The notes: generated from the letters alone by a model not told the origin. Counted from the stretch's first letter, positions 1,536-55,308 are shown. The stretch: DNA of 59,007 nucleotides from a virus (IMGVR_UViG_3300022917_000011:1-59007), one strand, 5' to 3'. Translations and numbers: made by a program.

Positions 1536-1540
1536 ATCTC

Positions 1541-2826: not shown

Positions 2827-2842
2827 TCCGCCTCACCATTGG

Positions 2843-4321: not shown

Positions 4322-4367
4322 AATGTCAGGAAGACAGAAAACAGGAGTATTGTAAAGGAGATTTAAC

Positions 4368-5279: not shown

Positions 5280-5280
5280 T

Positions 5281-6297: not shown

Positions 6298-6302
6298 ATG
6301 CG

Positions 6303-8618: not shown

Positions 8619-8658
8619 AGCTTTGACGAACCTTTGAATCCCTGATAAAGACTTTTAC

Positions 8659-10163: not shown

Positions 10164-10705
10164 GCGAACACTTCATCATCCTCGGACTCCCCCGCTCGAT
10201 GACCGCATGGGTCTCGTGTTTCCTGACGTGTGGGGACGTGTTCTGCCAGCACGAGTTGGCAGAGCATGAACCCATGGAGCTAGCATTGGAAAAAATCCCG
10301 CAACCTTTTGCGATTTCTGGTGTGTGCGATTCAGGGCTTTTGTTCTATCACGAGTGGGTAAGAGAGAAATACCCAAACGCTAAATACCTTTGGATTGAAC
10401 GGCCTCAAGAGGACGCAGAGGATTCTTTCATGGCTGCTACTGGCACGAGCAGAGCACAGTTGGGAATGACTTTTCAAGGCTGGCGTATAGAAAAAGAGCT
10501 ATTTCTAGAATTCACAAAACCTGAAGTTTTCACCTTCGATGAACTACAAACCGAAGAAGGCGCGAAAAGGCTTTGGGATTACGTTGCTCCTTCTGTTCCA
10601 CTTCCTCCGGCGCATCTGGCGAAGATGATGACCCTGAAGGTCGTAGTCCATCCGAAGGTTTACGCTGAAGCCGCTGCCACCCTGAACGCCCTCACCACCG
10701 CCTAA
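10160..10705 (+). CDS. Sulfotransferase-like P-loop protein
   Basis: FIILGLPRSMTAWVSCFL...CQHE matches the 5'-PSB loop pattern, and KYLWIER...S the 3'-PB pattern. GTG start overlaps the previous stop. Confidence 0.65.
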   Translation: MSEHFIILGLPRSMTAWVSCFLTCGDVFCQHELAEHEPMELALEKIPQPFAISGVCDSGLLFYHEWVREKYPNAKYLWIERPQEDAEDSFMAATGTSRAQLGMTFQGWRIEKELFLEFTKPEVFTFDELQTEEGAKRLWDYVAPSVPLPPAHLAKMMTLKVVVHPKVYAEAAATLNALTTA

Positions 10706-10707
10706 TC

Positions 10708-11571
10708 ATGCCCTACGGAGCCATCATTCAAGCCGTCATGCAGATCGCCGGAGCGGCGGTCGCGGGCAACCAGTTGCAGAAAGCCCGTGGGGGTTACGAG
10801 GCACAGATGGGCAAGACCGAGCGGGTTGAGCCCATCCGTGAGCCCAACCCCCAGATGTTCAACTGGGAGAATGCGTTGAACTCGGTCCTCGGCGCGAACC
10901 GGAACAACCGGACGATGCGTTACGACGACGCGGCGAAGCAGAACCAGTTCAATCGCGGGCAGGCGATGAAGATGTACACCGCTCTCCAGCCCTACTTCAA
11001 ACAGCTTCAGTCTCAGCAGGGCAAGAACGCTCTCTCCTTCTCCCGTGGCGAGTTGCCACAGGATACCGTAGACTCCATAGGGCGTGCTGCCGCCTCACGG
11101 GGTATCCAGGGCGGATACGGCATGGGCGTGGGGGCAGGCGCACCCGGCAGCGCCATGAGCAAGGTAAATCTGCGTGACCTTGGGCTTACTTCCTTGGATC
11201 TGACCAAGTATGGCACGGGGCTCTCGATGGACGTGAACCGGCTGGCCCAGCAGCTTTCCCCGCAACTGGCCAACCCCGAAGCCTACGCGCTCAGTCCACA
11301 GGTCGGCATGGGCTTTGCCGAGGGAAATACCAATCGCTTCAACGAGTCCAATCGGTATTGGAACTCGCTCCAGAATAAAGCCGAGTGGGATAACGTGGCT
11401 ACCCTCAACTACGCCAACGAGGCCATCGCCAACGCCAATCTGGCCAGCCGGTCTGCTGAGGCCAAGATGTGGAGCGAACTCGGCAGTAGCTCTGGCAGCG
11501 CTATGGGCGGCGGAGGAGGGGGAGGTGGTGGCGGAGGTAGTTCAATCATGTCAATGTTCGGAGGAGTCTAA
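10708..11571 (+). CDS. Internal virion / DNA ejection protein
   Basis: Gly/Ala/Gln/Asn/Met-rich, no Cys, poly-Gly tail; podovirus synteny. Confidence 0.65.
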   Translation: MPYGAIIQAVMQIAGAAVAGNQLQKARGGYEAQMGKTERVEPIREPNPQMFNWENALNSVLGANRNNRTMRYDDAAKQNQFNRGQAMKMYTALQPYFKQLQSQQGKNALSFSRGELPQDTVDSIGRAAASRGIQGGYGMGVGAGAPGSAMSKVNLRDLGLTSLDLTKYGTGLSMDVNRLAQQLSPQLANPEAYALSPQVGMGFAEGNTNRFNESNRYWNSLQNKAEWDNVATLNYANEAIANANLASRSAEAKMWSELGSSSGSAMGGGGGGGGGGGSSIMSMFGGV

Positions 11572-11573
11572 CC

Positions 11574-12674
11574 ATGCCAGTTCTAGGATACGGCCAAGTC
11601 AGCGGAATCGCCCCCGGTCTTTTTCAAGACGCCGGGGACTCCATCGTCGCGGGCATCCGCCGCACCGGGCAGGAGATTCGCACAAACCTCCGGCAGATTC
11701 AGACCAACAAGCAACTCAATGCTTTCGGTCAGGAGGCCGCGACTCTCGATCCCGCCGCGCCCAACTTCGCCACGTCGCTGATGGGCCTCGCCGGGAAGTA
11801 TCCCCTCGCGGCAGGCAGCGAGGCGGGGCAGACCATGGTAGGGCTGCTGGCCAGCGCGAACAAGAACGCCATGGGGCTGGAGATGGATGCGCGGAATTTT
11901 AATCAGCAGGCGGCTCGCGATCTTCGTCTTCACAAATATCAGATGGAGGAAAACAAGAGCAAACCTTCTTCTCTCACCGGGCAATATCGCCGGGTGCCGG
12001 GATTGGGGATTGTGGACGTTTTGAGTGGAGAAACTATTGCTGCTGAGCCGGGCAAAACCAAAACACTGAACGAAGGTCAATCGCTGGTGGATGAAAACGG
12101 GAACGTCATCGTGGCTCCTCGGGATCGCACGACCGCCACACCTTACCGCTTTGGTGGAGGGGTGGTGGGAAATGCAGCGACCGGGGAATTTGAGCCACTG
12201 CCCCTGACGCCATTTCAAGAAGGCACGCTCATGCAGCGTGGGGATGCTGCTGCCTTAAACCAATCCAAAGCGGCGATCATGGGGTTACAAGGAGACATCG
12301 CCCGATTGGTTCAAGAGGATGGTATTCTTTCTCAAGAGGCTGCAAAAACAGAAGACACACAGCGGAAAATCGCCATCCAGGCACGACGGGAAGACATTGC
12401 TCGGCGCGTGGACCGAAACCGTAGTGAATTGGATACTCTGATGAGGGTGACAGCAGACATCCCTCTTCAAGGACCATCGGCAGGAGCAAACAACCCACTC
12501 GCCCCTCGGGTGCTGGGCGGCCTGAACCCCCCACCCATCGCCGTAGACCCAATGGTTTCCGGTGCTCCCGTTCCGCAAATCGGCGGGGGTTCCGTGCTGC
12601 CTCCAGCGGGAGCCATCCCTTCGACTCGCAAAAACTCAGGTCCATCTTGGCAAAAGTATCTGCCCGCTCCATAG
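11574..12674 (+). CDS. Internal virion / DNA ejection protein
   Basis: 366 aa, helical and low-complexity, TLNEGQSLVDENGNVI repeat-type motif, no Cys. Confidence 0.65.
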   Translation: MPVLGYGQVSGIAPGLFQDAGDSIVAGIRRTGQEIRTNLRQIQTNKQLNAFGQEAATLDPAAPNFATSLMGLAGKYPLAAGSEAGQTMVGLLASANKNAMGLEMDARNFNQQAARDLRLHKYQMEENKSKPSSLTGQYRRVPGLGIVDVLSGETIAAEPGKTKTLNEGQSLVDENGNVIVAPRDRTTATPYRFGGGVVGNAATGEFEPLPLTPFQEGTLMQRGDAAALNQSKAAIMGLQGDIARLVQEDGILSQEAAKTEDTQRKIAIQARREDIARRVDRNRSELDTLMRVTADIPLQGPSAGANNPLAPRVLGGLNPPPIAVDPMVSGAPVPQIGGGSVLPPAGAIPSTRKNSGPSWQKYLPAP

Positions 12675-12680
12675 TCTGCC

Positions 12681-15600
12681 ATGCCGACCGAGCCGCTAGA
12701 ATGGGCAGCAATCGAATCTGATCCTGATTTTCAGGCCATTCCTTTTCCCCAAAAAGAGCAGGTTTTCAACAACTGGAAAACCGATGTCTCGGGGTTTTTG
12801 AAAGCTCAAGGTGCTCCGGAAGAGGATATTCAAGCTTTCGATGGCGCGGCCAATTCTACCTTCGAGCGGCGTTTTCTAATCCCTGAAATTCAGCAGGCCC
12901 AGCAAGCTACCATCGGGATTGCAGAATTGGACGTTGCCCCTTATCGCGTAAATCCGCAGGACGAGCAAATCCTCAACAATGAGGCAGTGACGGCCATGCG
13001 CCTCTACAAGGAGCGCGGAGAGTGGGAAGCACTTCCTGCTGACCAACGGCAGGCACTGGAACGCCGGGCGGCGAAAGGGCAGGCAGAAAAGCCCTTTGTG
13101 GAAACTCGGGTTGCTCCGGAAAGTCCGCTCCAGCGGTTCTTCGGTCCTGCCGTCACCGCGCAGGCGCAGAAAGAGATGAACCGGGGCATCACGGACAGTG
13201 GCGGCGCAGTGGCTGGTGGTGCTCTTGGCACGCAGATGATGATGGGGCTCCGGGGTGGACCACTCGGTGTGCTGTTGCCTGTGGCCGGGGCGATTGGCGG
13301 GGCAATGGTCGGCGGTGGTGTGCAGGAAGAAGCGACTACACTTTTGGAGAATAGTCCCGAGGTCACTGCCACCCGGCGCGAACGCACGACTCAGCTTCAA
13401 AACTCCCCCGAATATAAAGGCGGTAGCCTGCTCGCCATGGGCTCGCTGTTCCGACCATCGCTCAGTGTGGTTCGTGGGGCGTTGCGCGGGGACGCGGAAG
13501 CCATCGGCAACCTTGCCATTGGCGGTGGTCTCGGCGTGGGCACAGCCGCCGTGCAGCCGATTCTCGAAGGCCGGATGCCCACCACAGGCGAACTGCTCGA
13601 AGGCGGGGCGCTGGGACTCGCCTTGCACCAACCTACGCGCTTGGCGCAAGGTCTGTTCGGCTTTCGCCCCTACCAGCTTCGGCCCAATGGCCTGACCGAC
13701 ACCGTGCGAACGCCGCTGGGAACGCTGGACGCTGAAGGCCGGATTGTGCAGCCCGACGCTCCTGAGGGCGTGGCCCTGCGCTCCATGGAGGGGTTGAAGG
13801 CCACGGAGCCCGTAGAACCGTTGCCGTCTAACGACGCTACATCGTTGCTGGATTCCATTGCGGTGAACCATACCCCCGAAGGTGGTCCCACCGATTGGGT
13901 GGCCGTGCGGAATACGCTTTCCTCCCTTCAGCCGAAAAGCGGGGCCGATCCCGAACTGGTAGGGGTTATGGACGAAGCTCTCCAAATGGCCAGGCAGCGG
14001 GCGGGAGATGAAGCACCTGTGGAAGCGGACGTTCTGCCGCCTGTCGATGCTATTCCGGAAGTAGGACCGGAAACTCGAAATGGGCAGACCGGACGCACTG
14101 TGGAAGGCATTTGGGTGCCCGACGAGTTGCCGCGTGCTCCGCAACGAACTGGAAATGAAACTCCAGAAAACGTGCTCCCAACAGAGACAGTTTTGGAAAC
14201 GAACGTGCCACCACCTCCGCCCGGGGACGTGTCCGGTGAACGTGTGCAGCCGCCGTGGCCTGCTGATGGTCCAGCAGGGGTTAGGAATGCTTTTACCGAA
14301 GCAGAACGCGTCCGTCTTGGTTTCCCTGGCCGGGAAGAATCCACGGCACGTGCTTTTCCGAAACTCCACGAGGCGGCAGCAAAAGCTTTTGACGAAAATC
14401 CGAATGCTGGAAGCCAACTGGTAAAGAGCTTGCAGGAAAATCCTCGGGTTCCCGATGGAGACGACATAGCTATTTTGACCTTCGAGGCCAAGCGGCGGCA
14501 GATGGCTGTGGACCAATCTTACGAGGCAGTAAACAACGCTCGTACGCCGGAAGAATTGGCCAAGGCGCAAACTCGTTTGTCCCAAGATGCCCTCGCTTAC
14601 CAAGAAGCGATGTCTGTTTATGAACTCACCGGGAGTGCTCAATCTGAGGGCTTTTATGCTCGCCGGATGATGGTGAACGAGGATTTTTCTTTGGCTCGAA
14701 TGCTCGCCCGCGAGCGAGCCACGAAGCCCGACGCTGCTCCGCTTACTCCGGCAGAAATCGCGGAAGTCGGGAAAGTCCACGATGAAATCAAAATCGCGCA
14801 GGAGAACGTCGCGAAAGTTGAATCCAAAATTGCGGACACGGAAGCCGAGCAAATCCATAAACAACTTTTGAAACAAGCCAAGGGCGCGGCGAAGGAGAAG
14901 AAAGGCTTGGTGGACTATTTTAACGAGCAGGCGGAGGCGGCTCGCAAGCGTATCATTGGACGCCGTGGCCGTCTCCAGACCGGAGACCCGCTAAACCTCG
15001 CGGGCTTGGTGGACGAGGCCATCATTGGCGCGTCCTACGTGGCCAAGGGGGTGCGTGACTTTGCCCAGTGGAGCAAGCAAATGCTCACCGAGTTTGGGGA
15101 GCGCGTGCGTCCCCATCTCCAAGACTTGTTCACTCGCAGCCAGCAAATCGAGGCGGAGAATTCCAAACCATTCCGCACGCCAACCCCCGCTGAGATTTTG
15201 ACCGAGGCCAATGGGGCGATGAACCCGAAGGTTGTTTTCGATCTCGCACGGGCACACGTCAATTCGGGCAAGACCGATATGGCGGAAGTGATGAAGGCGG
15301 TCCATGGAGACCTTCTGCCGACAAATCCCAACCTCACCGAGCGCCAAGTGAGGGATGCCTTCAGCGGCTACGGAAAAACCACTTTCCCTAGCAAGGCAGC
15401 AGACCTAACCGCGCTGCGCGAGATGAAGACGCTTGCCCGGCTCACGTCCCAACTGGAGGACGCGCAGCGGAAAATTGCCCCGCTCAAGTCGGGACCACAG
15501 CGGGACAAGGCATCGGCCAAAGTTCGAGAACTGCAAAAGAAAGTGGACGCCGAGATGCGCAAGCAAGGCATCAATCCAGGCAATCCAGCCACCCAGCTTG

Positions 15601-17540
15601 CTTCCGCGCACACGGCCCGCGTTACCCGTCTCAAAAACACCATCGAGGAACTTCAAGGGAACATTGCGGCGGGCAAACGCACGCCTCAAACCGAGGGCGT
15701 CCCGTGGACTGCCGAGGAGTTGGCGCTGCGTGACCAGGTGGACGTGCTGCGCGACCAACTGGACGCCGTGCTCAACCAGCCAGAGAGCGACAAGCTCAAT
15801 GGGCTCCTGAAGCGCATCGAGGCGGTCACGGAGAAGCTGAAATCTGGAAACATTGAGCCGAAGACGGGCAAGCCCACGGTGGACACGGCGGCAGTGGCAG
15901 AGGCCAAGTTGAAATTGTCGGCACTAAATCGAGAATTGGCCCAAGCGCGCAGAGCCCAGCGTTTGAAAGAAAATCCCCCGAAAACCGAAGACGAGAAAAA
16001 ACTTCGTGCGCTGGAGAAACGCCGGGATGACTTGATCGCCGGGAAAATGAAACCCGGTCGTAAGCTCGGCGCGGATACCGAGGAACAGGCCATGGTGCGC
16101 TCGCAGATTGAAGACCTGACCTCTCAAATTCGAGAGGCAGAACAGACGGTTTTTAACTCTCCTGAAGCTCGGCTTGCCCGTGCCAAGGAAGCCTCTCTGG
16201 CTCGGCAGAAAGAGATTCAGCGGCGCATCGACGCCAACGACTACGCTCCTCCCGTGAAGCGGGACAAGGTGATGGACCGAGATTTGATGAAGGCGCTTTA
16301 CCAGGAGAGCCTGCTCAAAGAGGAATGGCAAAATCGTGCTGCCGATCAGGAGTGGTCACGCAAAAGCGTCTGGAGCAAAACGAAGGCCATCCTTGGTGAT
16401 AGCCCAAACTTGGCGCGCATCCTGATTACCTCGGCGGATGGCCCGGCGATTTTCCGGCAGACATTGACCAGCCTGACCACGCCCGTTCGCACTTCCAAGG
16501 CTGCGTGGCAGTCCATGCGGGCGATGTTCTCTGAGCAGAAGCGATTCGAGTTTCAGCGAGACATCGCCACCCGCCCGAATGCTCCGCTTTACGAGGCCAG
16601 CGGACTGCGCATCACCCGGCCCAATGCCAAGGCGTCTGCGACTGAGGAGCAATATATGTCCCGGCTGCTCAACAAGCTCCCGAAGTGGACCATCGTGGGT
16701 CCGGTTGCTCGGGCGGCAGAGCGGTCCTTTACGACCTACCTCAATCGTTACCGGGCAGACATGTTCGATGCGATGTACAAGCTCTACAAGCCCGGCGACT
16801 ACGAGCTTCCACAGATGGCGTCGGTGATCAACGATTTCACCGGCAGCGCGTCTTTGCGCGGCAGCAAGGTGGGAGACGCCATCGAGAACGCAGCCCCGTT
16901 CCTCAACAAACTTTTCTTTGCTGCCCGTAAGACCATCGCCGACCTCCGGGTGGGCACGTTCATGCCGCTCATCGGGGCGAAAGGCACGCTCAAATCGCGC
17001 ACCTATGCCTTGGAAAATTACGCTCGGTTGGTAGGCACCATGGGTCTTTTCCTCGGCCTGGCCCGCGCTGCCGGGCTCTACTACGAGACCGACCCACGCT
17101 CCACCCACTTTGGGAAAGTCTACGTGCCTGGAGAAAATGGGAAGCTCGGGGTGTGGCATGATGCCTTCAGCGGGCCGACTAAGGCGTTCACCCTCGCTGC
17201 ACGTGGAGCGACCGGAGAGACCAAAACAGCAAAAGGCAAAATTGACTCGCTGACCGATCCCAAATACGGAGGCGCGGACTTCTCAGATACCTTTGCCGGG
17301 TTCATGGGTGGCAAGCTCTCGCCTCTGCTCTCGAACGCTAAGGCTGCACTGGACCGAAAGGAATACGATGGGAGCCCCATTACCGTGCAAAGTACTGTGC
17401 TGAAAAACACCGTCCCAATTTCATACCAAAGCATTAAACCGATCATGGAACGCCTAGGCATTCCCAAGGGCGCAGCTACTCAGGCGTTCCAGTTCTTCGG
17501 CGGTGGGGCACAACCCGCTCGGGTTGCACCCAGACGCTGA
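12681..17540 (+). CDS. Large internal virion / ejection protein
   Basis: 1619 aa with Gly-rich hydrophobic segments and long coiled coils, zero Cys; last gene of the late arm. Confidence 0.75.
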   Translation: MPTEPLEWAAIESDPDFQAIPFPQKEQVFNNWKTDVSGFLKAQGAPEEDIQAFDGAANSTFERRFLIPEIQQAQQATIGIAELDVAPYRVNPQDEQILNNEAVTAMRLYKERGEWEALPADQRQALERRAAKGQAEKPFVETRVAPESPLQRFFGPAVTAQAQKEMNRGITDSGGAVAGGALGTQMMMGLRGGPLGVLLPVAGAIGGAMVGGGVQEEATTLLENSPEVTATRRERTTQLQNSPEYKGGSLLAMGSLFRPSLSVVRGALRGDAEAIGNLAIGGGLGVGTAAVQPILEGRMPTTGELLEGGALGLALHQPTRLAQGLFGFRPYQLRPNGLTDTVRTPLGTLDAEGRIVQPDAPEGVALRSMEGLKATEPVEPLPSNDATSLLDSIAVNHTPEGGPTDWVAVRNTLSSLQPKSGADPELVGVMDEALQMARQRAGDEAPVEADVLPPVDAIPEVGPETRNGQTGRTVEGIWVPDELPRAPQRTGNETPENVLPTETVLETNVPPPPPGDVSGERVQPPWPADGPAGVRNAFTEAERVRLGFPGREESTARAFPKLHEAAAKAFDENPNAGSQLVKSLQENPRVPDGDDIAILTFEAKRRQMAVDQSYEAVNNARTPEELAKAQTRLSQDALAYQEAMSVYELTGSAQSEGFYARRMMVNEDFSLARMLARERATKPDAAPLTPAEIAEVGKVHDEIKIAQENVAKVESKIADTEAEQIHKQLLKQAKGAAKEKKGLVDYFNEQAEAARKRIIGRRGRLQTGDPLNLAGLVDEAIIGASYVAKGVRDFAQWSKQMLTEFGERVRPHLQDLFTRSQQIEAENSKPFRTPTPAEILTEANGAMNPKVVFDLARAHVNSGKTDMAEVMKAVHGDLLPTNPNLTERQVRDAFSGYGKTTFPSKAADLTALREMKTLARLTSQLEDAQRKIAPLKSGPQRDKASAKVRELQKKVDAEMRKQGINPGNPATQLASAHTARVTRLKNTIEELQGNIAAGKRTPQTEGVPWTAEELALRDQVDVLRDQLDAVLNQPESDKLNGLLKRIEAVTEKLKSGNIEPKTGKPTVDTAAVAEAKLKLSALNRELAQARRAQRLKENPPKTEDEKKLRALEKRRDDLIAGKMKPGRKLGADTEEQAMVRSQIEDLTSQIREAEQTVFNSPEARLARAKEASLARQKEIQRRIDANDYAPPVKRDKVMDRDLMKALYQESLLKEEWQNRAADQEWSRKSVWSKTKAILGDSPNLARILITSADGPAIFRQTLTSLTTPVRTSKAAWQSMRAMFSEQKRFEFQRDIATRPNAPLYEASGLRITRPNAKASATEEQYMSRLLNKLPKWTIVGPVARAAERSFTTYLNRYRADMFDAMYKLYKPGDYELPQMASVINDFTGSASLRGSKVGDAIENAAPFLNKLFFAARKTIADLRVGTFMPLIGAKGTLKSRTYALENYARLVGTMGLFLGLARAAGLYYETDPRSTHFGKVYVPGENGKLGVWHDAFSGPTKAFTLAARGATGETKTAKGKIDSLTDPKYGGADFSDTFAGFMGGKLSPLLSNAKAALDRKEYDGSPITVQSTVLKNTVPISYQSIKPIMERLGIPKGAATQAFQFFGGGAQPARVAPRR

Positions 17541-17597
17541 TCAATCGTGTGCAGGCTCGCTATGAGCAGGCGGCGAAGGCAGTGGGGTTATGGTGAG

Positions 17598-18311
17598 CTA
17601 GCGAACGCTCATCAACTCGCGCCTGATTCTAGTGTCCGGTCGGCATGCCCAAATCGGGATGCTTGGATCGTTGAAGGGGTGCTTGAACACTTCCTGCCCG
17701 TTGATGCCACCCCACTTTTTTTTGTAGAACTCGAATCCCTTGCCATGAGTGATCCCGTTTTTCCTGCGCAACTCGGGGTCGCTCATGATGGTGCAGGAGC
17801 CAGTGGCCTTGGCGTCCCCGTGCTTTGAGGTAAGCCCATGCACCGTTGCACGCTTCACGCCCAGCAAATCAGCGCGATAGGCCCACTCGGTGTCCTCCAA
17901 ATAGGCCGGCCATAGGGCCTGCTCGAATGCGCCCACAGTGTTATATCCCATCTCCGTCACCCCCCACCAGCTTGCGCCGTGATTGCCATACAGGCAGCCC
18001 AGCGCCGGATCATTCGTAATGTCGTGGTGGAACTTCGCCAAATCCCCCGGCGCAAACTCGATGTCGTTGTTGACCAGCAGCCAGTAATCAGCCGGGAACA
18101 GCGTGATGGCCTCGTTCCAGCTTGCCGCAACCCCGGCGTTGGGATGTCGGATGAGCGTCCAGTTGAGCACGCTGGGCGGCGGATCGACGGTTCCGTCTTC
18201 AGTGCCGTTCTGGATGATGACCAGCCGCTCGACCGGGAAATCAATGGAGGCCACGCAGCGCAGAAGCAAATCTCTCCTATTTAGAAATGGCACGGCCATG
18301 ATAGGTATCAT
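17598..18311 (-). CDS. Glycosyltransferase, GT2-like (GT-A fold)
   Basis: VPFLNRRDLLLRCVASI, IIQNG, NAGVAASWN, LLVNNDI and AYLEDTEW motifs. Confidence 0.88.
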   Translation of the reverse strand: MIPIMAVPFLNRRDLLLRCVASIDFPVERLVIIQNGTEDGTVDPPPSVLNWTLIRHPNAGVAASWNEAITLFPADYWLLVNNDIEFAPGDLAKFHHDITNDPALGCLYGNHGASWWGVTEMGYNTVGAFEQALWPAYLEDTEWAYRADLLGVKRATVHGLTSKHGDAKATGSCTIMSDPELRRKNGITHGKGFEFYKKKWGGINGQEVFKHPFNDPSIPIWACRPDTRIRRELMSVR

Positions 18312-18790
18312 TTGTATTTTGGATGAAATTTTCTTACGCCTCTAATTTGTTCTGGGGACGTAGCCGCAAGTATTGGGTCCCAACCTTGCCGGATTCGTCC
18401 AGCAACAGTAGAACGGTGAAGCCCTAAGTGGCGCGACCAATCGGCACAAGTTTTTGTAACACCATCGATGGTTATGAATCGAGAATTAATCCGATTGTCG
18501 TTCTGAACTTTGCGAGTCGCCCACCGGCAATTCTCTGGGAAATATCCTTTTGTTCCGTCAATCCGGTCGAGCGACGTGCCCTCCGGGCGGGGCCCCATGT
18601 CCTCTATGAAATTCTCGAAAACATCCCACCGTTCGCAAACAGATATTCCGCGTCCCCCGTAATGGTAAAAAACAGGATTTTTTGGGTTGCTACATCTACT
18701 TCTCATTTGTGTCCAACTTCGATGTTCCGGAGAAACTCCCGCGTTTGTGCAGTGGCCGTGCCTTGGTAGGGCGCCCGCCCCTCTTGCCAT
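18308..18790 (-). mobile_element. HNH-type homing endonuclease
   Basis: HGH...WTQMRSRC.NP....YGGRGISVCERW and SLDRIDGTKGYFPENCRWA motifs. The frame is open back to 18889. Confidence 0.9.
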
Positions 18791-18893
18791 TTTCACGGGA
18801 GGCAGCGCACTTTCGTTTGGATTGGGATTTTCCGCCTTTGAGTCCCCCAAGTTTCCCAAGGGCGACTGCGTGTTTGTTTTTAAGCTCATTCAT
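18696..18893 (-). CDS. Small basic peptide (AVALGKLGG...ENGKRGGRP), putative DNA-binding
   Basis: Has a paralog at 32411-32563 and sits directly behind a sigma70-type promoter. Confidence 0.75.
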   Translation of the reverse strand: MNELKNKHAVALGKLGGLKGGKSQSKRKCAASRENGKRGGRPTKARPLHKRGSFSGTSKLDTNEK

Positions 18894-18896
18894 GGA

Positions 18897-18925
18897 ATCC
18901 TAATCCGGTTTGGGTTTCTTGTCAA
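18897..18925 (-). promoter_or_regulatory. Sigma70-type promoter with near-leaderless start
   Basis: TTGACA-17 nt-TAGGAT-tcc-ATG, with an imperfect palindrome centred on CCGG over the spacer and -10. Confidence 0.75.
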
Positions 18926-19473
18926 CCTTTGGAAAAATACACGAGATTCGCGAGGGTCTGGTGGACTACATAATAGCTCCGGTCCATCAAGTAGTCACGC
19001 ACGCGCCAGTCGATTCCAAGACCCTCCGTCCGATATTCCGCGATGATGATGCGTGGCTGATGGTCTTCCAGAACCATCGAGGTCAACGCCTCGAACTCAT
19101 GGCCCTCCACGTCTAGCGTCAGTAGGTCAATTTTACCGATGCCATGCTTTTCCAGTAAGCTCTCCAGGGTGACTGCCGGAACGAACGGGTTGCCGTCCTC
19201 CACGCGGGAGACGACGTGGTTGGGGTGGAAGTTGAACGGCACCTCGGGTTGGTCGCTGATAATCGCGTTCACGAAAGGCGTCTTCCATTTGTGGGCATGG
19301 GCCGGGTTGCCGTCGATGGACAGCCCGCGCCAGCCGAGATCACGAAGCAGCGCGGTGTTGCTGCCGGTGATAGGGTCGGCAGCGCCGAGGTCTACGTAAA
19401 CCCGGTTATTGCCTCCCAGATGGTTGTTTTCGTAGAGCCAGCGATCTTCGCCAAATTCGGAGTAGAATTTCAT
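18922..19473 (-). CDS. FkbM-family SAM methyltransferase
   Basis: FYSEFGED, YVDLGAADP..GSNT and IDLLTLDVEGHE motifs. Confidence 0.92.
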   Translation of the reverse strand: MKFYSEFGEDRWLYENNHLGGNNRVYVDLGAADPITGSNTALLRDLGWRGLSIDGNPAHAHKWKTPFVNAIISDQPEVPFNFHPNHVVSRVEDGNPFVPAVTLESLLEKHGIGKIDLLTLDVEGHEFEALTSMVLEDHQPRIIIAEYRTEGLGIDWRVRDYLMDRSYYVVHQTLANLVYFSKG

Positions 19474-19646
19474 TTTGGGGTATTAACTTTATCCAAACGA
19501 GCGATGGTTTTTACGTGCCTCACAGTGCCTCCGAATCCTTGATTAGAGACAAGTTCCAAAGCTTCTTTCCGCGTATAGGCAGCAACGCTAGTAGTCTCAA
19601 CCAATGTCATCTCCACGTTGTAAATTTTCAGTTTCTTAGCTTTCAT
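19470..19646 (-). CDS. Small hypothetical protein
   Basis: 58 aa from ATG 19646; start and stop are coupled with both neighbours. Confidence 0.55.
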   Translation of the reverse strand: MKAKKLKIYNVEMTLVETTSVAAYTRKEALELVSNQGFGGTVRHVKTIARLDKVNTPK

Positions 19647-20443
19647 AAAATCCCTCTTTCGCGCAGCACGTTCATCCCGTGCTCCAGGTTGCCTACTTCC
19701 ACGGTGTTCCCGCACATGCCCAAAGTTTCCCGGTCCAAGAAGGCCAGCCGTAGCTTGGCCGTGTGCTGGTTCCACACGTTGAAGGTCGGCCAGCTTGGGC
19801 CGGTGGAGACGAATACGATGATTTTGCACAGAAGCGACAGGTGCCCGATGCCCGTGCAGGTGATGTTGTAGTCTAGCGTGCAGGGCACTTTCACCGAACT
19901 GGGCCATGTGGTGATGACCGAGTAACGTGAGGCCAGTGCCTCCACCATGGGAGTGAAATATTCGGGGTTGTTGCACCCTCCGGGGCCGCTTAGATAAGCG
20001 CGAAACTGGGCACTGCACGGAGCCGAGTTGACGAACAGCACGTCGAACGGATAGCTGAGCGGCGTGGGCTTCAGCAGCGCGGGGTAGTCGAACAGCAGGT
20101 CTTCATTGTGCTGGAACGGACTTTCCACCCCCATGCGTTTGGACAGGTGCTGGAACCATTCAAGATGGAACGCAGCGTAGTGGTCACGCAGCGGGTGATG
20201 CTCCCAGTAGCCTTCAGTGTTTTTCCAAATGTGATGGGCACCGGGTTGGCGATGGTGGTAGTCGAAGAGGTGAACGTTCGGCAGGTCTTCGATAAGTTCG
20301 ACCATCTGGGGGAAGTGCGCGGAGTTGACTCCATGGTGGAACTGGTCCTCGGGCTGGCGAATGGCCAGCTTGCGCAAGAAGTGCAGATGAATCAACGAGT
20401 CTCCAATTTGAAACCCACACCAAGTCTCGAAGCGTCGGCTCAT
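19643..20443 (-). CDS. Putative GT-B fold glycosyltransferase (GT9-like)
   Basis: N-terminal IGDSLIHLHFLRKL and C-terminal CKIIVFVSTGPSW resemble the GT9 GD and DSGP motifs. Confidence 0.6.
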   Translation of the reverse strand: MSRRFETWCGFQIGDSLIHLHFLRKLAIRQPEDQFHHGVNSAHFPQMVELIEDLPNVHLFDYHHRQPGAHHIWKNTEGYWEHHPLRDHYAAFHLEWFQHLSKRMGVESPFQHNEDLLFDYPALLKPTPLSYPFDVLFVNSAPCSAQFRAYLSGPGGCNNPEYFTPMVEALASRYSVITTWPSSVKVPCTLDYNITCTGIGHLSLLCKIIVFVSTGPSWPTFNVWNQHTAKLRLAFLDRETLGMCGNTVEVGNLEHGMNVLRERGIL

Positions 20444-20731
20444 CCGGCAATTTGCATTGGGCGCAATCCCACGAAAACGTTGTTCACCACGACCACGCAT
20501 GGGCCGGGGTGAGTGACCGTACGGAGGATGCCGGTGAACTTCTTTTTGGCCACGCGCTCACGTTCATCGAGCAGGGCTTTAGGTGTCCAGGTTTTCATTT
20601 GCGGCTTCCTTTCTTTCCTTTAACTGCTGATTCCAGCCAGTCGTCTCCGTTCGGATGATATTTATCCACGAGAACTTGCTTGCCGGGTTTGTGGTCTTCC
20701 CACCCTTCAGCGTGGGTTTTCGATTTATCGC

Positions 20732-21391
20732 TCATAGTGGCGTGGTTCGTTTGAAAGTGATCTGATGTTTACAGCCGCTCCCGGCGTGGGGCCACGTGGG
20801 CTTATACTCGTAGCGATTCACGCAATGGGGCCATATTGGTTCGTAAGGATCTTCTGTCCAAATTTTATCGAAAGGAACACACTTCCCTCGCCGGGACAAC
20901 TTTGGAGTATCCACCTGCCGGTCGTTGTCCTGAATCCAAAATTCGATGGGCAGGTCATGCCCGCTGGCGTACATCGCCGCGCTGTGCAGTGCTCCGTTTT
21001 CCACCCCGCCATCGCCGAGGAAGCAGAACACTCGCGCATCCTCTCCGCTGTCCTGAATCGCCTTGGCCACCCCCACCGCGATTCCGCAGCAGCCTCCGAG
21101 GATGGCCGACTGGTAAAACCGCCGCTCGCGGTCGAAGATGAACATCGAAGAATCCCTGAGGATGAAGTCCATCAGCTTGTCCTCGGGGATGCCTTTGAGC
21201 AACGCCAAATAATGAGCCCGGTGCGGAGCGAAGACCCAATCATGGGGCCGGATGCGCTGGAAAATGTTGAGAAGCTGGCCCTCGTCCCCGCCGCAAATGT
21301 GGCACAACGATGGCAAGTCCCCGGCCTCCCAGGCCAAGCGCACGCGCTCCTCGAAGGCGATTAGGGATTCTCGGGTGTGTTTCGTGATCAT
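20732..21391 (-). CDS. Minimal ThDP-dependent E1 alpha-like subunit
   Basis: HICGGDE, PHRAHY.ALLKG, SAILGG and the ThDP/Mg motif GDGG...DN; only about 219 aa. Confidence 0.92.
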   Translation of the reverse strand: MITKHTRESLIAFEERVRLAWEAGDLPSLCHICGGDEGQLLNIFQRIRPHDWVFAPHRAHYLALLKGIPEDKLMDFILRDSSMFIFDRERRFYQSAILGGCCGIAVGVAKAIQDSGEDARVFCFLGDGGVENGALHSAAMYASGHDLPIEFWIQDNDRQVDTPKLSRRGKCVPFDKIWTEDPYEPIWPHCVNRYEYKPTWPHAGSGCKHQITFKRTTPL

Positions 21392-21645
21392 ATTACAATC
21401 AAAACATTCCCGTGTGCGTCCACCCACGCTTGTCTTGGGGGAGGCACCTTGCAAAGGGCTTTAAGCCACGCTTCCCCCATCTTGGTAGTGCGCAGTTTTC
21501 CCTCCCGCACTTCGAGCGCGCCCACACTAGTTAAATCTTCTATTGCTCCCACTATGGCAGGAGCATCTACCCGAGGATGTGGTTCGGGGCTGCAATGGTA
21601 GTGAATTAAAACGTCGATGTTGTTTGGAGTTTCAATAGTTTTCAT
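21388..21645 (-). CDS. Small hypothetical (winged-helix-like) protein
   Basis: 85 aa; start and stop are coupled with both neighbours. Confidence 0.6.
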   Translation of the reverse strand: MKTIETPNNIDVLIHYHCSPEPHPRVDAPAIVGAIEDLTSVGALEVREGKLRTTKMGEAWLKALCKVPPPRQAWVDAHGNVLIVI

Positions 21646-22679
21646 AGCGTCACCATCACCCTTCCGGCCTGTCCTGCACGGACCAAATCAAATCCCTTGT
21701 TCACGTCTTCGAGCGAAACTCGATGAGTAACTACCCGTCCGAATTTTAGTCTCCCTGCTTCCCACATGGCAATGTAGCGGGGAATCATTTCCGATGGACG
21801 GAAGCCGCCGCCTTGACTCCATATTATTCGGGCTCCATTTCCATAAAACCTATCAACCGCAGACATAATTCGGAAACTTTCGTTTGGCTTGGTTTGACCC
21901 AGGAGAATCATCCTGCCCGTCCCACTGATAAGCGGTATGCTTTGCTCCAGCACCTCCACGTTTCCAGTCGTGTCCACGATGACATCGTAGCGGCGACCCT
22001 TTAGCTCCGGCAGACTGTTGAAGACATTCGCCCCCAGGTCGAAAGCCAGCTTCGACTTGGTGTGGTCTTGGTCCACCACCGTCACCTTGCCCGCTCCTGC
22101 CGCGCAGGCCGCGAGAATGAGGTTCGCCCCGACGCCGCCACAGCCCAAAATCAAAACGCTCTCGCCCAACTTCAGCTTGGCCTCCTGCTCAATGGTTCCA
22201 AGAGCCGTCGAAAGGCCACAGCCCAGCAGCGCGCACAAGTCATCCGGAGTGTCGTCGGGCACGACCGTCATCCGGTTGGCGCTCACCACCACGGACTCAG
22301 CCAGGGTCACGACGTGCCCACCCCCGATGGTGGTGAGCTTGTAGTTGTAGCGTGCGGGCAACGTGGCCTCAGGACCGTCGCCCTTGCGCCAGTGGAGGAC
22401 ACACTTCTTCCCCTTCATCTGCACGTTCACGCCGGGTCCAACCTCCTTGACGATGCCCACGCCCTCATGGCCGATGAGCCTCGGCAGCGGAGCCTCGGGG
22501 TTCTTGTGGCCTGCCTGTTCGCCAAGCTGGGCTCCGCAGATGCCCGATTGAATCATCTTCACCCGCACCTGACCATAGGAGCAGACGTTGCCCGAGTGAT
22601 CGGTGACGGCGTGACTCAGGTCGGTGAGGACCAGCGGGGCGTTGTGGGCTTCGAGAAGGGCGGCGCGAAAGGTGGTCAT
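21642..22679 (-). CDS. Zn-dependent medium-chain dehydrogenase/reductase
   Basis: GICGAQ, GHEGVG, LLGCG and GCGGVG Rossmann motifs; lacks the 4-Cys structural Zn loop. Confidence 0.93.
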   Translation of the reverse strand: MTTFRAALLEAHNAPLVLTDLSHAVTDHSGNVCSYGQVRVKMIQSGICGAQLGEQAGHKNPEAPLPRLIGHEGVGIVKEVGPGVNVQMKGKKCVLHWRKGDGPEATLPARYNYKLTTIGGGHVVTLAESVVVSANRMTVVPDDTPDDLCALLGCGLSTALGTIEQEAKLKLGESVLILGCGGVGANLILAACAAGAGKVTVVDQDHTKSKLAFDLGANVFNSLPELKGRRYDVIVDTTGNVEVLEQSIPLISGTGRMILLGQTKPNESFRIMSAVDRFYGNGARIIWSQGGGFRPSEMIPRYIAMWEAGRLKFGRVVTHRVSLEDVNKGFDLVRAGQAGRVMVTL

Positions 22680-22682
22680 TTT

Positions 22683-23246
22683 TTAATAGGCGTCCTTGTA
22701 CTCAAAAATCATTGTATTCCCCAACCCCTCCCGCATGCGGCGATAACCCTCAGCCCAGAACTCCTGAACCTCGTAGGCGTCTCGTGCCACAAGAACGGGC
22801 ATTTTCAGGATGAGCTTCATGGCCTCGGATGGATCGGATACGTGGGTTGCCCCCGTGAATAGTGGGCGAAGTTTCCCACCAACTACCACCCGGATAATCA
22901 CCGATGGCACGAATTCACGGCGGCTAATTTCTTCGCACTTATCAAGATGTGAAGCCAAGGCCGACATACAATTCCATAGGAAGTCCGCCCTTTCTATTGT
23001 GACTACGGGGCGCAGTCCCATCAGGCTCATGCCCATTGCCGCGCCCACCATCAGGTCTTCTGCTACCGTAAATTCCGATAGGCTGGACTCTGGAACATCC
23101 TTCAGGAATCCGCCTGCGCGGCCCGCGATCATGCCATATCCAACGAAGCGAGCCAGGGGGTCTTTCCCGATTTCAGTAAGAGCAGCCTTGATGGCACCCT
23201 TGTAGGTTTGAGCTTGCGGCTGATTAGCCAATGTCTCAGTTTGCAT
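22683..23246 (-). CDS. Minimal ThDP-dependent E1 beta-like subunit (pyrimidine-binding domain only)
   Basis: EFTVAEDLMVGAAMGMSLMGLRPVV..ERADF with the catalytic Glu; 187 aa with no C-terminal domain. Confidence 0.9.
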   Translation of the reverse strand: MQTETLANQPQAQTYKGAIKAALTEIGKDPLARFVGYGMIAGRAGGFLKDVPESSLSEFTVAEDLMVGAAMGMSLMGLRPVVTIERADFLWNCMSALASHLDKCEEISRREFVPSVIIRVVVGGKLRPLFTGATHVSDPSEAMKLILKMPVLVARDAYEVQEFWAEGYRRMREGLGNTMIFEYKDAY

Positions 23247-23477
23247 GGGCAGTCGTGATTGTCTGCGCACCGTGGGCGTGTCGGCTTCGGCTGTCAAGCT
23301 CACGGTGTCTTTGTTTCGGGCCGCTTGACCCAATCCGGCCAAAATCAAGCCGTGCTTTCCTCGTAGCCGCGATCCAGCACAAATGCTCATGCTGCATTTG
23401 GAGCCGCTTGGATTCGTTGGTGCAATGCCCTAGGTAAAACACGACGCCGATAATGGCGATGGCTTCAGCGACGTGCT

Positions 23478-23702
23478 TCACTTGCCGTCCTCCCCGTAGC
23501 CGAGCGCGGTGAGCAGGCGTCGAATGTATTGATCCACGACGACCCCAAGGCCCACCCAATAGGTCTTGACGGGCTCAAATCCGAACGAAGTGAGTTCGTT
23601 TCCCGGTAGCGACATCACGCCGATGTCGCGGTATTCATCTCCCGCCTGGATGATCTCGCCCTTCGCGAGCCAGCGGTGCTTCTGGGGTTGGTCGGTATTC
23701 AT
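23478..23702 (-). CDS. Hypothetical protein
   Basis: RWLAKGEIIQAGDEY motif is common in small phage proteins; operon packing. Confidence 0.6.
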   Translation of the reverse strand: MNTDQPQKHRWLAKGEIIQAGDEYRDIGVMSLPGNELTSFGFEPVKTYWVGLGVVVDQYIRRLLTALGYGEDGK

Positions 23703-23926
23703 AGGTTTGGTTTGTGGTTATGCGAGGTTGATTTGTTTCTGAGCCTCTGAAACCGGGTCGGTCGGAGGTTGGTAAAGAAATGGAAACCGGTCTCGATTCC
23801 TGCTGGCTTTCAGAATCTCTGCCCCAACCGTCAGGTTATACATGATTTGCCGCAGCTTGTCCTTGTCCTCCTCGCTGCCTTTCCTTTTTGCGATGCGCCG
23901 CACAAGCGCCCTGTGTTCGGCGGGTG

Positions 23927-24829
23927 TCATATGGACCGGATGATTGCTTTCTTGAGTTCTTCTAATTCGCACTCCAACTCCCTGATCCGCTCCTCCTGCG
24001 CGCCTGCGATACTGCGGGCTGTGTCGCCCTTGTTTGCCGCATCGGTGGCCATAGCAAGTTCGCGCTCAAGGTCGGCGATCTTCTTGTCAGATGCTTCCAT
24101 GAATTGCCGACCTACCAAAGTGGCAACCTCCAATCGCTGAATCCAATCGGCATTCTTGGCTCTCAACTCGCCGATGTATTCCGCCTGCTGCTTGGACTCG
24201 CGAACAAATGCTTCTGCGTTCTGGATCAGCCTGCGCTGCGTGGCGTAGAGGTCGGATTCGATTTGTCGGGCAACTTCTGGGCTCACCCAATCCTCGGGCG
24301 AAGAGGACAGCCCCTCGCCGCCGTCAAAAGCCACATCTACGGAAACGATGGCCGCATCCGTGATCGGAGTCCCCTCAGGAACCGGCGCGAGGTCTGCGGG
24401 CTTTGCCACTGGCGGCGGGATCGGACCGTCCGCCGTGGCGTTACTTCCCACTGCACTCAGGGCATGGTGTGCCGTAGCAGTTCCATCCGTGGGTACGGCA
24501 CTGGAAGTTTTGCATTGGATTGTGGGACATGTTTCACCTCCTTTCATAAAAAGTTGAACAGCGGTCAGAACTTCGTTGGGCTCGATAGCAGCGACATCCA
24601 GTCCGCAGACTTCGGCGATTCTCGCCAAGTATCGTGCCTGCTCGCTCGCGTTCTCCAAATCCACCTTCAGCGCCGCTATCTCGCGGTCCTTGGTGGCAGC
24701 AGCAATGCGCATGGCTTGCAATTCCCGTCCCTGTTCAAGCATGCGCTGCACCGCCCACTGGTCGTCGGCCTGCGTGTATTCGGGATCGCCCTCGTCGGGC
24801 GGGTTGGTTGATGGTGCAATGTCGGACAT
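23927..24829 (-). CDS. Coiled-coil hypothetical protein
   Basis: 300 aa ORF on the coding strand with heptad segments and a TPITDA motif. Confidence 0.7.
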   Translation of the reverse strand: MSDIAPSTNPPDEGDPEYTQADDQWAVQRMLEQGRELQAMRIAAATKDREIAALKVDLENASEQARYLARIAEVCGLDVAAIEPNEVLTAVQLFMKGGETCPTIQCKTSSAVPTDGTATAHHALSAVGSNATADGPIPPPVAKPADLAPVPEGTPITDAAIVSVDVAFDGGEGLSSSPEDWVSPEVARQIESDLYATQRRLIQNAEAFVRESKQQAEYIGELRAKNADWIQRLEVATLVGRQFMEASDKKIADLERELAMATDAANKGDTARSIAGAQEERIRELECELEELKKAIIRSI

Positions 24830-24862
24830 AGGTCAGTTTCGGTCGATTGGTTGAAAGTGCGC

Positions 24863-25198
24863 CTAACGCGACTTGGGTTTTGTGGACAAGGCATTTTTCA
24901 AATCAATTCCAGAAAGTAGGTCCATCTGAATGTCAGGCCTGCCTTCTTGGGCCATGGATTCTCTAGACTTCTCCAGAAGTATTCGCTGCGTTGAGATGCC
25001 ATCCACGAATCCCTTTTTTTCGTGCCAGCTTCCGTCGTAGTGACGCCCTAGCCTATCCTCCAGTTCTGCCTTGATCTCGGCATGCGTCATCGAGTCCGGG
25101 AAATCCTCGCTGTGCTGGGTCTTGTCAAAGCGACCGCTCTTGTTGTCCTGCAAGGCATGAAGGACGTAGAACGCCCGCTTGATGTGGCTTGGGCTCAT
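24863..25198 (-). CDS. Hypothetical protein
   Basis: 111 aa, operon packing. Confidence 0.55.
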   Translation of the reverse strand: MSPSHIKRAFYVLHALQDNKSGRFDKTQHSEDFPDSMTHAEIKAELEDRLGRHYDGSWHEKKGFVDGISTQRILLEKSRESMAQEGRPDIQMDLLSGIDLKNALSTKPKSR

Positions 25199-25637
25199 GG
25201 CAGGAGGCGTTCAATTCGGGTGAAGATGTCGGGGTTGTCTTGGGTTTTCCTGCTACTGAGCGTTCCATGGCCCATTACAGATTCATCCAAGGCATCCAAA
25301 ATCATCTGAAATTCTGGCTTGCTGGCATGGATGCGACGAAGCTCCAAAATACGAGCCGTTATTTTCTGGGATCGGTCAGGCGGCGACTGGCTCATAGTGT
25401 GCGGTGGGCTTGATGCAGGGCATCGTTGGCTTCCTCGGATTTGCAGCACTCCTCGCACTCGTCTTCGGATATGGATTCCAGTTCCCGAATCAGTAGATCC
25501 AAGGCATCGAGGGCGCGCTGCACTTGCTGTGGGTCACGCTTTTCGTGCGGCTGATAACGGAGATCAGTTAGTTTGCTCACTAAGGCATGGGTCTTCATAG
25601 ATTGCTTTGCTTGGTTTCAAGGGCGGTCAGGCGGGTC

Positions 25638-50231: not shown

Positions 50232-50293
50232 TTGAGGAAAAATAAAATTACCCACTTGACGATGCAACGTTTACCGTGCTAAGCATCCACCGA

Positions 50294-52544: not shown

Positions 52545-52545
52545 A

Positions 52546-55306: not shown

Positions 55307-55308
55307 TT

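Follow-up and report, generated by a model that had tools for sequence, protein, structure and literature searches.

A mobile, mainly phage-borne gene cassette with a predicted minimal E1-like thiamine diphosphate enzyme and a likely role in sugar tailoring and transfer

Why would a virus carry both halves of an enzyme resembling the E1 component of pyruvate dehydrogenase (PDH), coupled to a zinc dehydrogenase, glycosyltransferases and a methyltransferase? The question is raised by IMGVR_UViG_3300022917_000011, a 59,007-bp virus record with a CheckV completeness of 100% (the window, by which we mean this whole stretch of DNA), in which an unbroken run of eleven open reading frames (ORFs) lies on the minus strand from position 23246 down to 17598. 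The cassette most likely represents a mobile, mainly phage-borne module for the tailoring and transfer of a sugar. Judged from the encoded proteins, its best reading appears to be C-C bond tailoring of that sugar by a thiamine diphosphate (ThDP)-dependent enzyme, an interpretation that we hold with about equal measures of confidence and doubt. Eight of the ten ORF junctions are 4-nt start/stop overlaps, the other two being a 3-nt gap between the E1beta-like gene (beta) and that of a zinc-dependent medium-chain dehydrogenase/reductase (MDR), and a 32-nt gap between the genes of an FkbM methyltransferase and an HNH endonuclease; the E1alpha-like gene (alpha), beta, the MDR gene, the GT-B and GT-A glycosyltransferase (GT) genes and the methyltransferase gene are co-transcribed. 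An earlier interpretation made from the DNA alone (the sequence-only reading) had described six of these genes as a co-oriented, start/stop-coupled run, a description that all six bear out on the minus strand at the positions given below, but it had overlooked the HNH endonuclease gene and four small ORFs.

The alpha gene (20732-21391, minus strand) encodes 219 residues comprising only the core of the pyrophosphate-binding (PP) domain, and the beta gene (22683-23246, minus strand) encodes 187 residues comprising only the pyrimidine-binding (Pyr) domain. In Pfam, alpha matches E1_dh with an E-value of 6.9e-13 at profile positions 6-163 of 300 only, with a further weak match to TPP_enzyme_C (0.0019), and Transket_pyr (4.6e-6) is the only domain of beta. 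Searches of the PHROGs families placed alpha on the N-terminal half (positions 4-198, 3.8e-51) and beta on the C-terminal half (232-405, 2.1e-31) of phrog_34187, a single fused family of 405 positions with PP and then Pyr in order. Because fused proteins of this type exist, the split alpha and beta are the halves of one PP + Pyr enzyme, and the occurrence of natural alpha-beta fusions of ~400 residues in Synechococcus phage S-SM2, Prochlorococcus phage P-TIM68 and contigs L070-L073 (L numbers denote our loci) argues that the two proteins associate. The GDG...N ThDP/Mg motif of alpha (GDG-X(25-30)-N in E1 proteins; here G126 D127 G128 ... N156) is invariant among 22 sequences, and the glutamate of a "VAE" motif in beta aligns with that of "ISE" in the E1beta of branched-chain keto acid dehydrogenase (BCKDH), which we take to be the ThDP-activating residue of E1beta. 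From these motifs, alpha and beta together are predicted to form a catalytically intact, minimal ThDP enzyme.

The best match of alpha in the Protein Data Bank (PDB) is human PDH E1alpha (2.4e-16, residues 51-210 of 365), with far weaker matches to a split transketolase (2e-7) and to DXS (3.7e-5), and the best match of beta is the BCKDH E1beta of P. putida (3.9e-8). Full-length E1alpha proteins have ~320-400 residues; alpha lacks their C-terminal third, and the members of its family have about 200-230 residues. Beta stops short of the third, E2-docking (Transketolase_C) domain. A search for longer alpha homologues at E <= 1e-10 found none, a weak test (fusions of ~400 residues are known, and the query perhaps contained a stop codon). 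The alpha family comprises 527 proteins at E <= 1e-5, nearly all of them metagenomic. A homologue is also encoded by a large uncultured phage of 735 kb (LR756501.1, 322605-323195; E 1e-46, with 41% identity across 87% of the query sequence). When 185,579 species genomes were scanned, alpha returned four loci with at least 30% identity, all of them contigs of metagenome-assembled genomes (MAGs), and 36 further matches at 25-30%, which fall in 31 Nonomuraea loci and five MAG contigs. One Nonomuraea locus was resolved with Pfam into an operon of E1alpha (419 aa), E1beta (367 aa) and E2 (lipoyl and acyltransferase domains). Because such distant relatives (26-28% identity) sit in ordinary E1/E2 operons, the viral alpha/beta is a derived, pared-down offshoot of a 2-oxoacid dehydrogenase E1 without the parts for E2 interaction.

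Family searches of the whole 59,007-bp genome found no match to 2-oxoacid_dh (E2, PF00198), Biotin_lipoyl (PF00364) or Transketolase_C (PF02780), and PF00198 was likewise absent from five related virus records; the system is therefore not a pyruvate dehydrogenase complex. The sequence-only reading had judged a PDH of central metabolism unlikely from the lack of E2/E3 and lipoyl proteins and of a C-terminal domain in beta, and had named homologues clustered in E2/E3-bearing PDH or acetoin dehydrogenase operons among the observations that would refute its proposal, a check that here turns out in favor of the proposal. Relatives with at least 40% identity were found in viral neighborhoods rich in glycan genes, and only the Nonomuraea relatives at 26-28% in E1/E2 operons.

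The company kept by alpha and beta was examined in two sets of loci. The first, of 42 loci, comprises the source phage, S-SM2, P-TIM68, four MAG contigs and 35 viral contigs, and leaves out L003 (the source phage itself) and L008-L043 (the cellular matches at 25-30%); the second comprises 78 metagenome loci, of which 34 are termed close (alpha at least 40% identical) and 44 fall below 40%. An MDR gene accompanies alpha/beta in 23 of the 42 loci and a gene for a radical S-adenosylmethionine (SAM) enzyme in 13, with both in none and neither in six, two of which lie on contigs that break off 88 bp past beta. In the close set of 34, an MDR was seen in 22, a radical-SAM enzyme in eight, both in one and neither in three; the single locus with both rests on a radical-SAM match of 22% identity, and among the three with neither, two have alpha at the contig edge or no more than 178 bp from it on the upstream side, and the third contig measures just 1,446 bp. 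Both partners are missing from 40 of the 44 loci with alpha below 40%, a group that may include ordinary E1s. Thus, a redox partner is obligate to alpha/beta, an MDR in about two thirds and a radical-SAM enzyme in about one third of the loci. A gene for the GT9-like transferase of the cassette is found with alpha/beta in 20 of the 42 loci and in 12 of the 34 close ones, many contigs in these sets being too short for the linkage to be judged. In the reciprocal direction, a genome scan seeded with the GT9-like family alone returned ten MAG loci, in seven of which alpha and/or beta adjoins and in eight of which an MDR or radical-SAM gene is present; no other gene of the source phage travels with the core set in these loci. 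The conserved core consists of alpha, beta, the GT9-like transferase and one redox partner, carried as a mobile cassette mostly on viral contigs.

Seven of the ten cellular contigs bearing the GT9-like gene (L079, L080, L083, L085-L088) belong to Verrucomicrobiota MAGs (Opitutaceae, Terrimicrobiaceae, Chthoniobacteraceae and unclassified), and the neighbor clusters scanned from a pool of loci with L079 and L080 among them included ordinary bacterial families (such as a solute-binding protein, a beta-lactamase fold and HisF-like). These contigs may be a clue to the host or may carry chromosomal copies.

Mobility is evident from the arrangement of the core. Gene order varies by lineage (GT9-like-beta-MDR-alpha; alpha-GT9-like-beta-radical SAM; alpha-beta-radical SAM-GT; MDR followed by an alpha/beta fusion), and in L089, L090 and L103 the order is GT9-like-beta-FkbM-MDR-alpha-GT2-like, with or without a following DXD-motif GT, so that FkbM stands inside the core between beta and MDR. 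In relatives of 55-58 kb (L047-L056), one of them a complete genome with terminal repeats, the cassette is flanked by homologues of the source phage genes at 46677-50267 and 52546-56436. In the source phage itself, the cassette lies ~30 kb from the genes at 46677-56436 and on the opposite strand, and this difference in genomic site indicates that it has moved within the phage group. Selfish genes have settled at the cassette junctions, the HNH gene in the source phage and, between beta, MDR and alpha in L047 (7696-8130, 9170-9649) and L049 (8042-8476, 9516-9995), inserts encoding an HNH-AP2 endonuclease (159 aa) and a 144-residue ORF with an NPPY motif, presumably like that of a DNA adenine methyltransferase. 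Shuffled order, shifted site and selfish inserts at junctions together argue for a functionally coupled mobile module.

The MDR (21642-22679, minus strand; 345 aa, ADH_N and ADH_zinc_N domains) matches phrog_2640 (8.4e-69), and its nearest PDB matches are class I/III alcohol dehydrogenases (ADHs) at about 3e-26. Residues C48, H71, E72, C154, the GxGGxG motif (G179-G184) and D203 are conserved (at least 95%) among 15 family members. The first four of these correspond to the catalytic-zinc ligands of liver-type ADH, whose GHE and GCG motifs align with the protein; GxGGxG is the NAD(P)-binding Rossmann motif, and D203 presumably marks a preference for NAD. Residues 95-122 are skipped in the alignment to the structural-zinc lobe of human ADH and contain a single cysteine, hence the four-cysteine structural-zinc lobe is missing. 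A homologue search returned 1,535 matches, with generic automatic names throughout. The enzyme that takes the MDR slot in other lineages is a radical-SAM/SPASM protein of ~364 residues, in which a CX3CX2C motif and four further cysteines are conserved (at least 95%) among 15 sequences. Its sole PDB relative is BlsE, a weak match (1.1e-7, 34.7 bits); every NCBIfam match lies far under its cut-off, and a protein atlas places it only in clusters with the generic name "radical SAM protein", of which about half are viral. In sister aminoglycoside pathways, the alcohol-to-ketone reaction of the radical-SAM enzyme BtrN is carried out by NAD/Zn-MDR enzymes. According to earlier papers, BtrN-type radical-SAM dehydrogenases convert a ring alcohol to a ketone (PMC2996862), and BlsE is a cytosylglucuronate decarboxylase acting on a nucleoside-sugar (PMC3715490).

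The third constant member, a compact GT-B transferase (19643-20443, minus strand), has 266 residues when read from the coupled ATG and 285 from the first ATG. It matches no Pfam family, including Glyco_transf_9, at E <= 0.01 and no NCBIfam family, and a profile of its family finds no PDB sequence at E <= 10; a library of 1.84 billion proteins contains 630 representatives of the family itself at E <= 0.001, and an N-terminal G-D motif is invariant within it. An AlphaFold2 model built with 14 homologues (pLDDT 91.8, pTM 0.89) was compared with solved structures using VIA-align, which matched it to the GT9 enzymes WaaF (1psw, Z 13.5), WaaC (2h1f, Z 13.5), a further GT9 member (3tov, Z 13.2) and TibC (4rap, Z 12.5) over 233-238 aligned residues at 9-15% identity, with other GT-B enzymes at Z 9.6 and lower. 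A chain of the chloroplast NDH-PSI subcomplex (7wff_a, Z 13.6) tied with the GT9 group. Foldseek likewise retrieved TibC and WaaC, at 3.5e-6 to 5.7e-6. Among eight long forms of the protein, two carry a GT2 domain and one a GT1-like domain. The modeled fold thus upholds the GT9-like assignment of the sequence-only reading, with no match to a sequence profile, and identifies the protein as a probable short, divergent GT-B enzyme of heptosyltransferase type.

How these parts might work together can be set out as a scheme, in which we infer the chemical steps, the substrate and the acceptor. Alpha and beta would assemble into an E1-like heteromer that generates an acyl-anion equivalent bound to ThDP; hydroxyethyl-ThDP derived from pyruvate would be the simplest case. 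An E1 without a lipoyl partner can release its acyl anion only to a proton or a carbonyl, and in a cassette concerned with sugars a keto-sugar offers itself as the carbonyl compound. With no lipoyl acceptor, the anion would be passed to the carbonyl carbon of an activated sugar supplied by the host, to yield a sugar with a C-branch or an extended chain. The role of the MDR would be either to oxidize a sugar hydroxyl to make that carbonyl or to reduce an acetyl branch later. Oxidation before C-C bond formation is favored because a radical-SAM enzyme can replace the MDR, and roughly half of the confidence that we place in sugar tailoring goes to this order of events. The sequence-only reading had the zinc enzyme act as a reductase after branching, which is still a possible role, but the radical-SAM enzymes in its slot (13 of 42 and 8 of 34 loci) fit prior oxidation at least as well. 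An MDR that makes the keto-acceptor from a host sugar would leave no need for a dehydratase, and none was recognized: a search of the whole genome for the short-chain dehydrogenase/reductase (SDR) Epimerase/dehydratase family gave no match, hence no nucleoside diphosphate (NDP)-sugar 4,6-dehydratase was found, as the sequence-only reading had stated. The GT9-like and GT2 enzymes would transfer sugars to an acceptor, which may be a virion protein, the core of the host lipopolysaccharide or another glycan, and the FkbM protein would methylate.

A precedent for such chemistry is in print, although itself only a proposal. According to PMC4753412, AviB1/AviB2 of avilamycin and Pau11/Pau12 of paulomycin biosynthesis are E1alpha/E1beta-like pairs proposed to install a C-4 acetyl branch from pyruvate, after which ketoreduction (by Pau7) gives a hydroxyethyl branch. 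The NDP-4-keto-6-deoxyhexose type of substrate favored by the sequence-only reading found no support here. Such indirect hints as there are, namely the GT9 fold and the GmhA-like, PfkB and nucleotidyltransferase genes next to alpha-beta in other lineages, suggest a sugar of heptose type instead, which overall we regard as a tentative idea and somewhat doubtful.

Several observations weigh against this interpretation. Regarding heptose, the GmhA-like, PfkB and nucleotidyltransferase genes occur beside forms of alpha-beta that are fused or distant, heptose-pathway genes are found in none of the 34 close metagenome relatives, and a GT9-type fold is no proof of an ADP-heptose donor. The source phage has no gene for making a keto-sugar besides the MDR and no genes for nucleotide-sugar synthesis, so that the substrate must be guessed, and no activity is known for any member of the system, nor a substrate or product. 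The MDR is similar to common class I/III alcohol dehydrogenases, which is compatible with small aldehydes; the slot that it shares with the radical-SAM enzyme need not mean that the two catalyze the same reaction; and the Transket_pyr match of beta, at 26.8 bits, falls slightly below the Pfam gathering cut-off of 27 bits. The AviB1/AviB2 precedent is a proposal compared by description only. Lastly, the cassette lies in the early, replication-side gene block and not among recognizable structural genes.

Other functions may be considered for the same set of genes. Alpha-beta could act as a minimal enzyme of transketolase or DXS type and supply a ketose phosphate (e.g., sedoheptulose 7-phosphate) to a heptose or alditol nucleotide pathway, with the MDR reducing or oxidizing a sugar phosphate in the manner of TarJ. 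Genes for GmhA-like SIS, PfkB, nucleotidyltransferase, HldE-like and GHMP-kinase proteins near alpha-beta in S-SM2, P-TIM68, L070-L073, L076 and L006/L007 are consistent with this, as are the 6-phosphogluconate dehydrogenase and gluconolactonase genes close by in L006 and the label of the S-SM2 protein, "transketolase central region-containing". However, alpha is far nearer to PDH E1alpha than to transketolase or DXS by the E-values given above and beta is nearest to BCKDH E1beta; the PP-Pyr-Transketolase_C architecture of the transketolase/DXS class is not seen, with no such third domain in the genome; the heptose-pathway genes are absent from the source phage as well as from all 34 close relatives; and hosts already have a transketolase. 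Precursor supply would moreover leave the constant pairing with an MDR or radical-SAM enzyme and the GT9-like transferase unexplained, and we consider it improbable. A shunt of small-molecule carbon metabolism, in which an E1-like 2-oxoacid decarboxylase and an alcohol dehydrogenase form ethanol, acetoin or a butanediol-type product for redox balance without relation to the transferases, would agree with the class I/III character of the MDR in PDB and NCBIfam searches, with the annotation of alpha homologues as "TPP-dependent pyruvate/acetoin dehydrogenase alpha subunit" and with the classic ethanol pair of a ThDP decarboxylase and a zinc ADH. It makes no sense of a radical-SAM/SPASM enzyme in place of the ADH in about a third of the loci, and the GT9-like gene is linked in both search directions, translational coupling extends to the transferases and glycan genes dominate the neighborhood, so that a shunt seems distinctly unlikely.

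Equally slight is the chance that the cassette places an unusual sugar or side chain on phage DNA to evade restriction. The cassette does share a strand block with replication genes (a DnaB-like helicase and an O-like initiator), it comes after RecT-type recombination genes in L059- and L065-type loci, and GT-B enzymes glycosylate the DNA of T-even phages; against this stand the lack of a thymidylate-synthase-like hydroxymethylase in the genome, the cyanophage copies in polysaccharide-type clusters (several GTs, a "capsular polysaccharide biosynthesis protein", epimerases) and the best fold matches, which are heptosyltransferases of lipopolysaccharide (LPS) and protein. We give hardly any credence to phosphonate or sulfonate decoration, in which a split enzyme like phosphonopyruvate or sulfopyruvate decarboxylase would work with an aldehyde reductase to furnish a C-P or C-S headgroup for a glycan. 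The subunits of ~170-220 residues, giving a PP + Pyr unit of ~400 residues together, resemble those of ComDE and Ppd, and the weak TPP_enzyme_C match of alpha (0.0019) points the same way; yet the genome has no phosphoenolpyruvate (PEP) mutase, the domains match E1_dh and Transket_pyr rather than TPP_enzyme_N/C, and the fused forms run PP then Pyr, the reverse of the domain order in Ppd and ComDE. 

The remaining genes of the operon lie around this core. The FkbM methyltransferase (18922-19473, minus strand; 183 aa) matches Methyltransf_21 with an E-value of 1.2e-12 (48.7 bits against a Pfam cut-off of 22.7 bits); homologues at 36-44% identity stand directly beside the MDR in seven of the 34 close metagenome loci, and an FkbM-like homologue falls into one cluster with a protein encoded among the S-SM2 sugar genes. 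The GT2 (GT-A) enzyme (17598-18311, minus strand; 237 aa) matches Glycos_transf_2 (7e-9, 36.3 bits against a cut-off of 23.3 bits) and phrog_29879, "galactosyl transferase" (1.9e-23), and in the 78 metagenome loci its homologues amount to one weak match. The sequence-only reading had counted both as parts of the system; FkbM is a recurrent accessory but not a constant core member, and the GT2 of the source phage is not conserved with the core and lies outside it. Between the two sits the HNH homing-type endonuclease gene inserted in the operon (18308-18889, minus strand; 193 aa), whose product matches phrog_3377 (1.2e-50) and, weakly, the Pfam I-TevI DNA-binding domain (0.0059). Four small coupled ORFs occupy all the apparent gaps of the operon: orf85 (21388-21645; 85 aa), which overlaps the MDR stop and the alpha start, and orf46 (20595-20735; 46 aa), orf52 (20440-20598; 52 aa) and orf58 (19470-19646; 58 aa), each with a 4-nt overlap on either side, all on the minus strand. 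Orf85 has no counterpart at the MDR/alpha junction in the relatives examined, which carry other inserts there instead.

Genes no more than 5 kb from alpha/beta, or from any member of the core at loci without a selected alpha/beta ORF, were clustered. Pfam was run on 148 of the 180 clusters, that is, on all but the 1619-residue source phage protein and the last 31 single-locus clusters listed. Glycos_transf_2 is the commonest family (eight clusters), which bears out the association of the core with glycan genes in other genomes that had been proposed. GT11, Glyco_trans_1_2, NTP_transferase, PfkB, FkbM, radical SAM and NUDIX follow with two clusters each, and GDP-mannose dehydratase, NeuB and UDP-GlcNAc 2-epimerase were seen once. 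In a group of 58-kb phages a GT2-like gene and a DXD-motif GT gene come immediately after alpha. The marine MAG contig L006 (3999-19612) holds a distant alpha/beta (233 and 225 aa) among genes for a GmhA-like SIS protein, an HldE-like kinase/nucleotidyltransferase, a GHMP kinase, an NTP-transferase, a NUDIX protein and a GT2, together with radical-SAM, B12-binding radical-SAM, 6-phosphogluconate dehydrogenase and gluconolactonase genes. The S-SM2 and P-TIM68 pair lies among genes for epimerases, a PfkB kinase, nucleotidyltransferases, phosphoheptose isomerase and GTs.

In the rest of the genome, family searches found no match to ThyA, PEP mutase or tyrosine integrase, and no tRNA genes were found. 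The phage is probably virulent, and the lack of a tyrosine integrase makes seroconversion of the classical lysogenic kind unlikely. A promoter and terminator scan of 17300-25300 gave no excess over shuffled sequence (4 vs 3.9 and 8 vs 9.7), and blastn of the cassette region against 50,697 phage records gave no match. Searches of PHROGs with ten further phage proteins matched only the helicase, the initiator and one weak family of unknown function; ten large phage proteins gave a single Pfam match, DUF5977, and six large proteins, including the 1619-residue product of 12681-17540, had no PHROG match. The regions 180-17540 (plus strand) and 46677-58654 are largely uncharted.

Phage glycan clusters and E1-like sugar-branching enzymes are already known kinds of system. 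What is new is the minimal PP + Pyr architecture, the mainly viral spread, the fixed association with the GT9-like transferase, and the alternation of MDR and radical-SAM enzymes; no paper describing an alpha/beta, MDR and GT9-like module in phages was found in a literature search of incomplete coverage that excluded supplements. Taken together, the cassette may specify a pathway not yet described, leading to a sugar that is C-branched or extended in its chain and is possibly derived from a heptose, by way of a new minimal E1-derived ThDP carboligase (PP + Pyr, split or fused), with the keto-acceptor supplied by a zinc dehydrogenase or radical-SAM enzyme, mobile in many phage lineages (cultured cyanomyoviruses among them) and decorating virions or rewriting the host envelope, a proposal that we regard as possible and put forward with reserve.

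Hundreds of viral genes bear automatic names such as "pyruvate/acetoin dehydrogenase E1 alpha", "transketolase central region" and "S-(hydroxymethyl)glutathione dehydrogenase", which at face value would make them auxiliary metabolic genes of central carbon metabolism; their context says glycan tailoring. As an assembly of PP and Pyr domains that dispenses with a third, a catalytic unit of ~400 residues would make a compact and appealing ThDP scaffold, and the exchange of MDR for radical SAM would be a natural experiment in performing the same step with and without NAD. For phage biology, the target of glycosylation in a probably virulent phage is a question of current interest. The core also offers something concrete and testable for the cyanophage "LPS gene clusters", whose function was stated as unknown in 2010 (PMC3037559), and cultured carriers exist in S-SM2 and P-TIM68.

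Those cyanomyovirus clusters (SSM2_197/198 in S-SM2; P-TIM68) are among the known systems close to the cassette, with a homologous MDR (47% and 44% identity) directly before alpha-beta (41-45%) and, in S-SM2, an FkbM-like homologue of the source phage methyltransferase; the GenBank labels of the cyanophage copies, "transketolase central region-containing protein" and "zinc-containing alcohol dehydrogenase", have stood since 2010. They differ in that alpha-beta is fused (~400 aa), in having their own GmhA-like isomerase, kinase, nucleotidyltransferases and epimerases, and in having no GT9-like homologue within the 19 kb examined. The heterotetrameric (alpha2beta2) E1 proteins of PDH and BCKDH provide the best sequence matches of alpha and beta, which keep the ThDP/Mg motif and the activating glutamate, but alpha is partial, beta is without Transketolase_C, and the E2/lipoyl/E3 context is absent. 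WaaC, WaaF and TibC of family GT9 are the top structural matches across the whole GT9-like model, although the solved GT9 chains are ~60-120 residues longer and the GT9-like protein has no sequence-profile membership. The enzyme replacing the MDR shares the CX3CX2C and SPASM-type cysteines with BtrN and BlsE, but its match to BlsE is weak and its NCBIfam matches are sub-threshold. With AviB1/AviB2 and Pau11/Pau12 (PMC4753412), the cassette has in common E1alpha- and E1beta-like genes without E2/E3 amid sugar-tailoring genes and GTs, with a separate redox enzyme and a methylation or acylation step at hand. In contrast to those pairs, to which it is likened by description and not by sequence, it has subunits reduced to a PP and a Pyr domain (219 and 187 aa) in a viral setting, a Zn-MDR or radical-SAM enzyme where theirs is an aldo-keto reductase, and a source phage without an NDP-sugar 4,6-dehydratase or decarboxylase.

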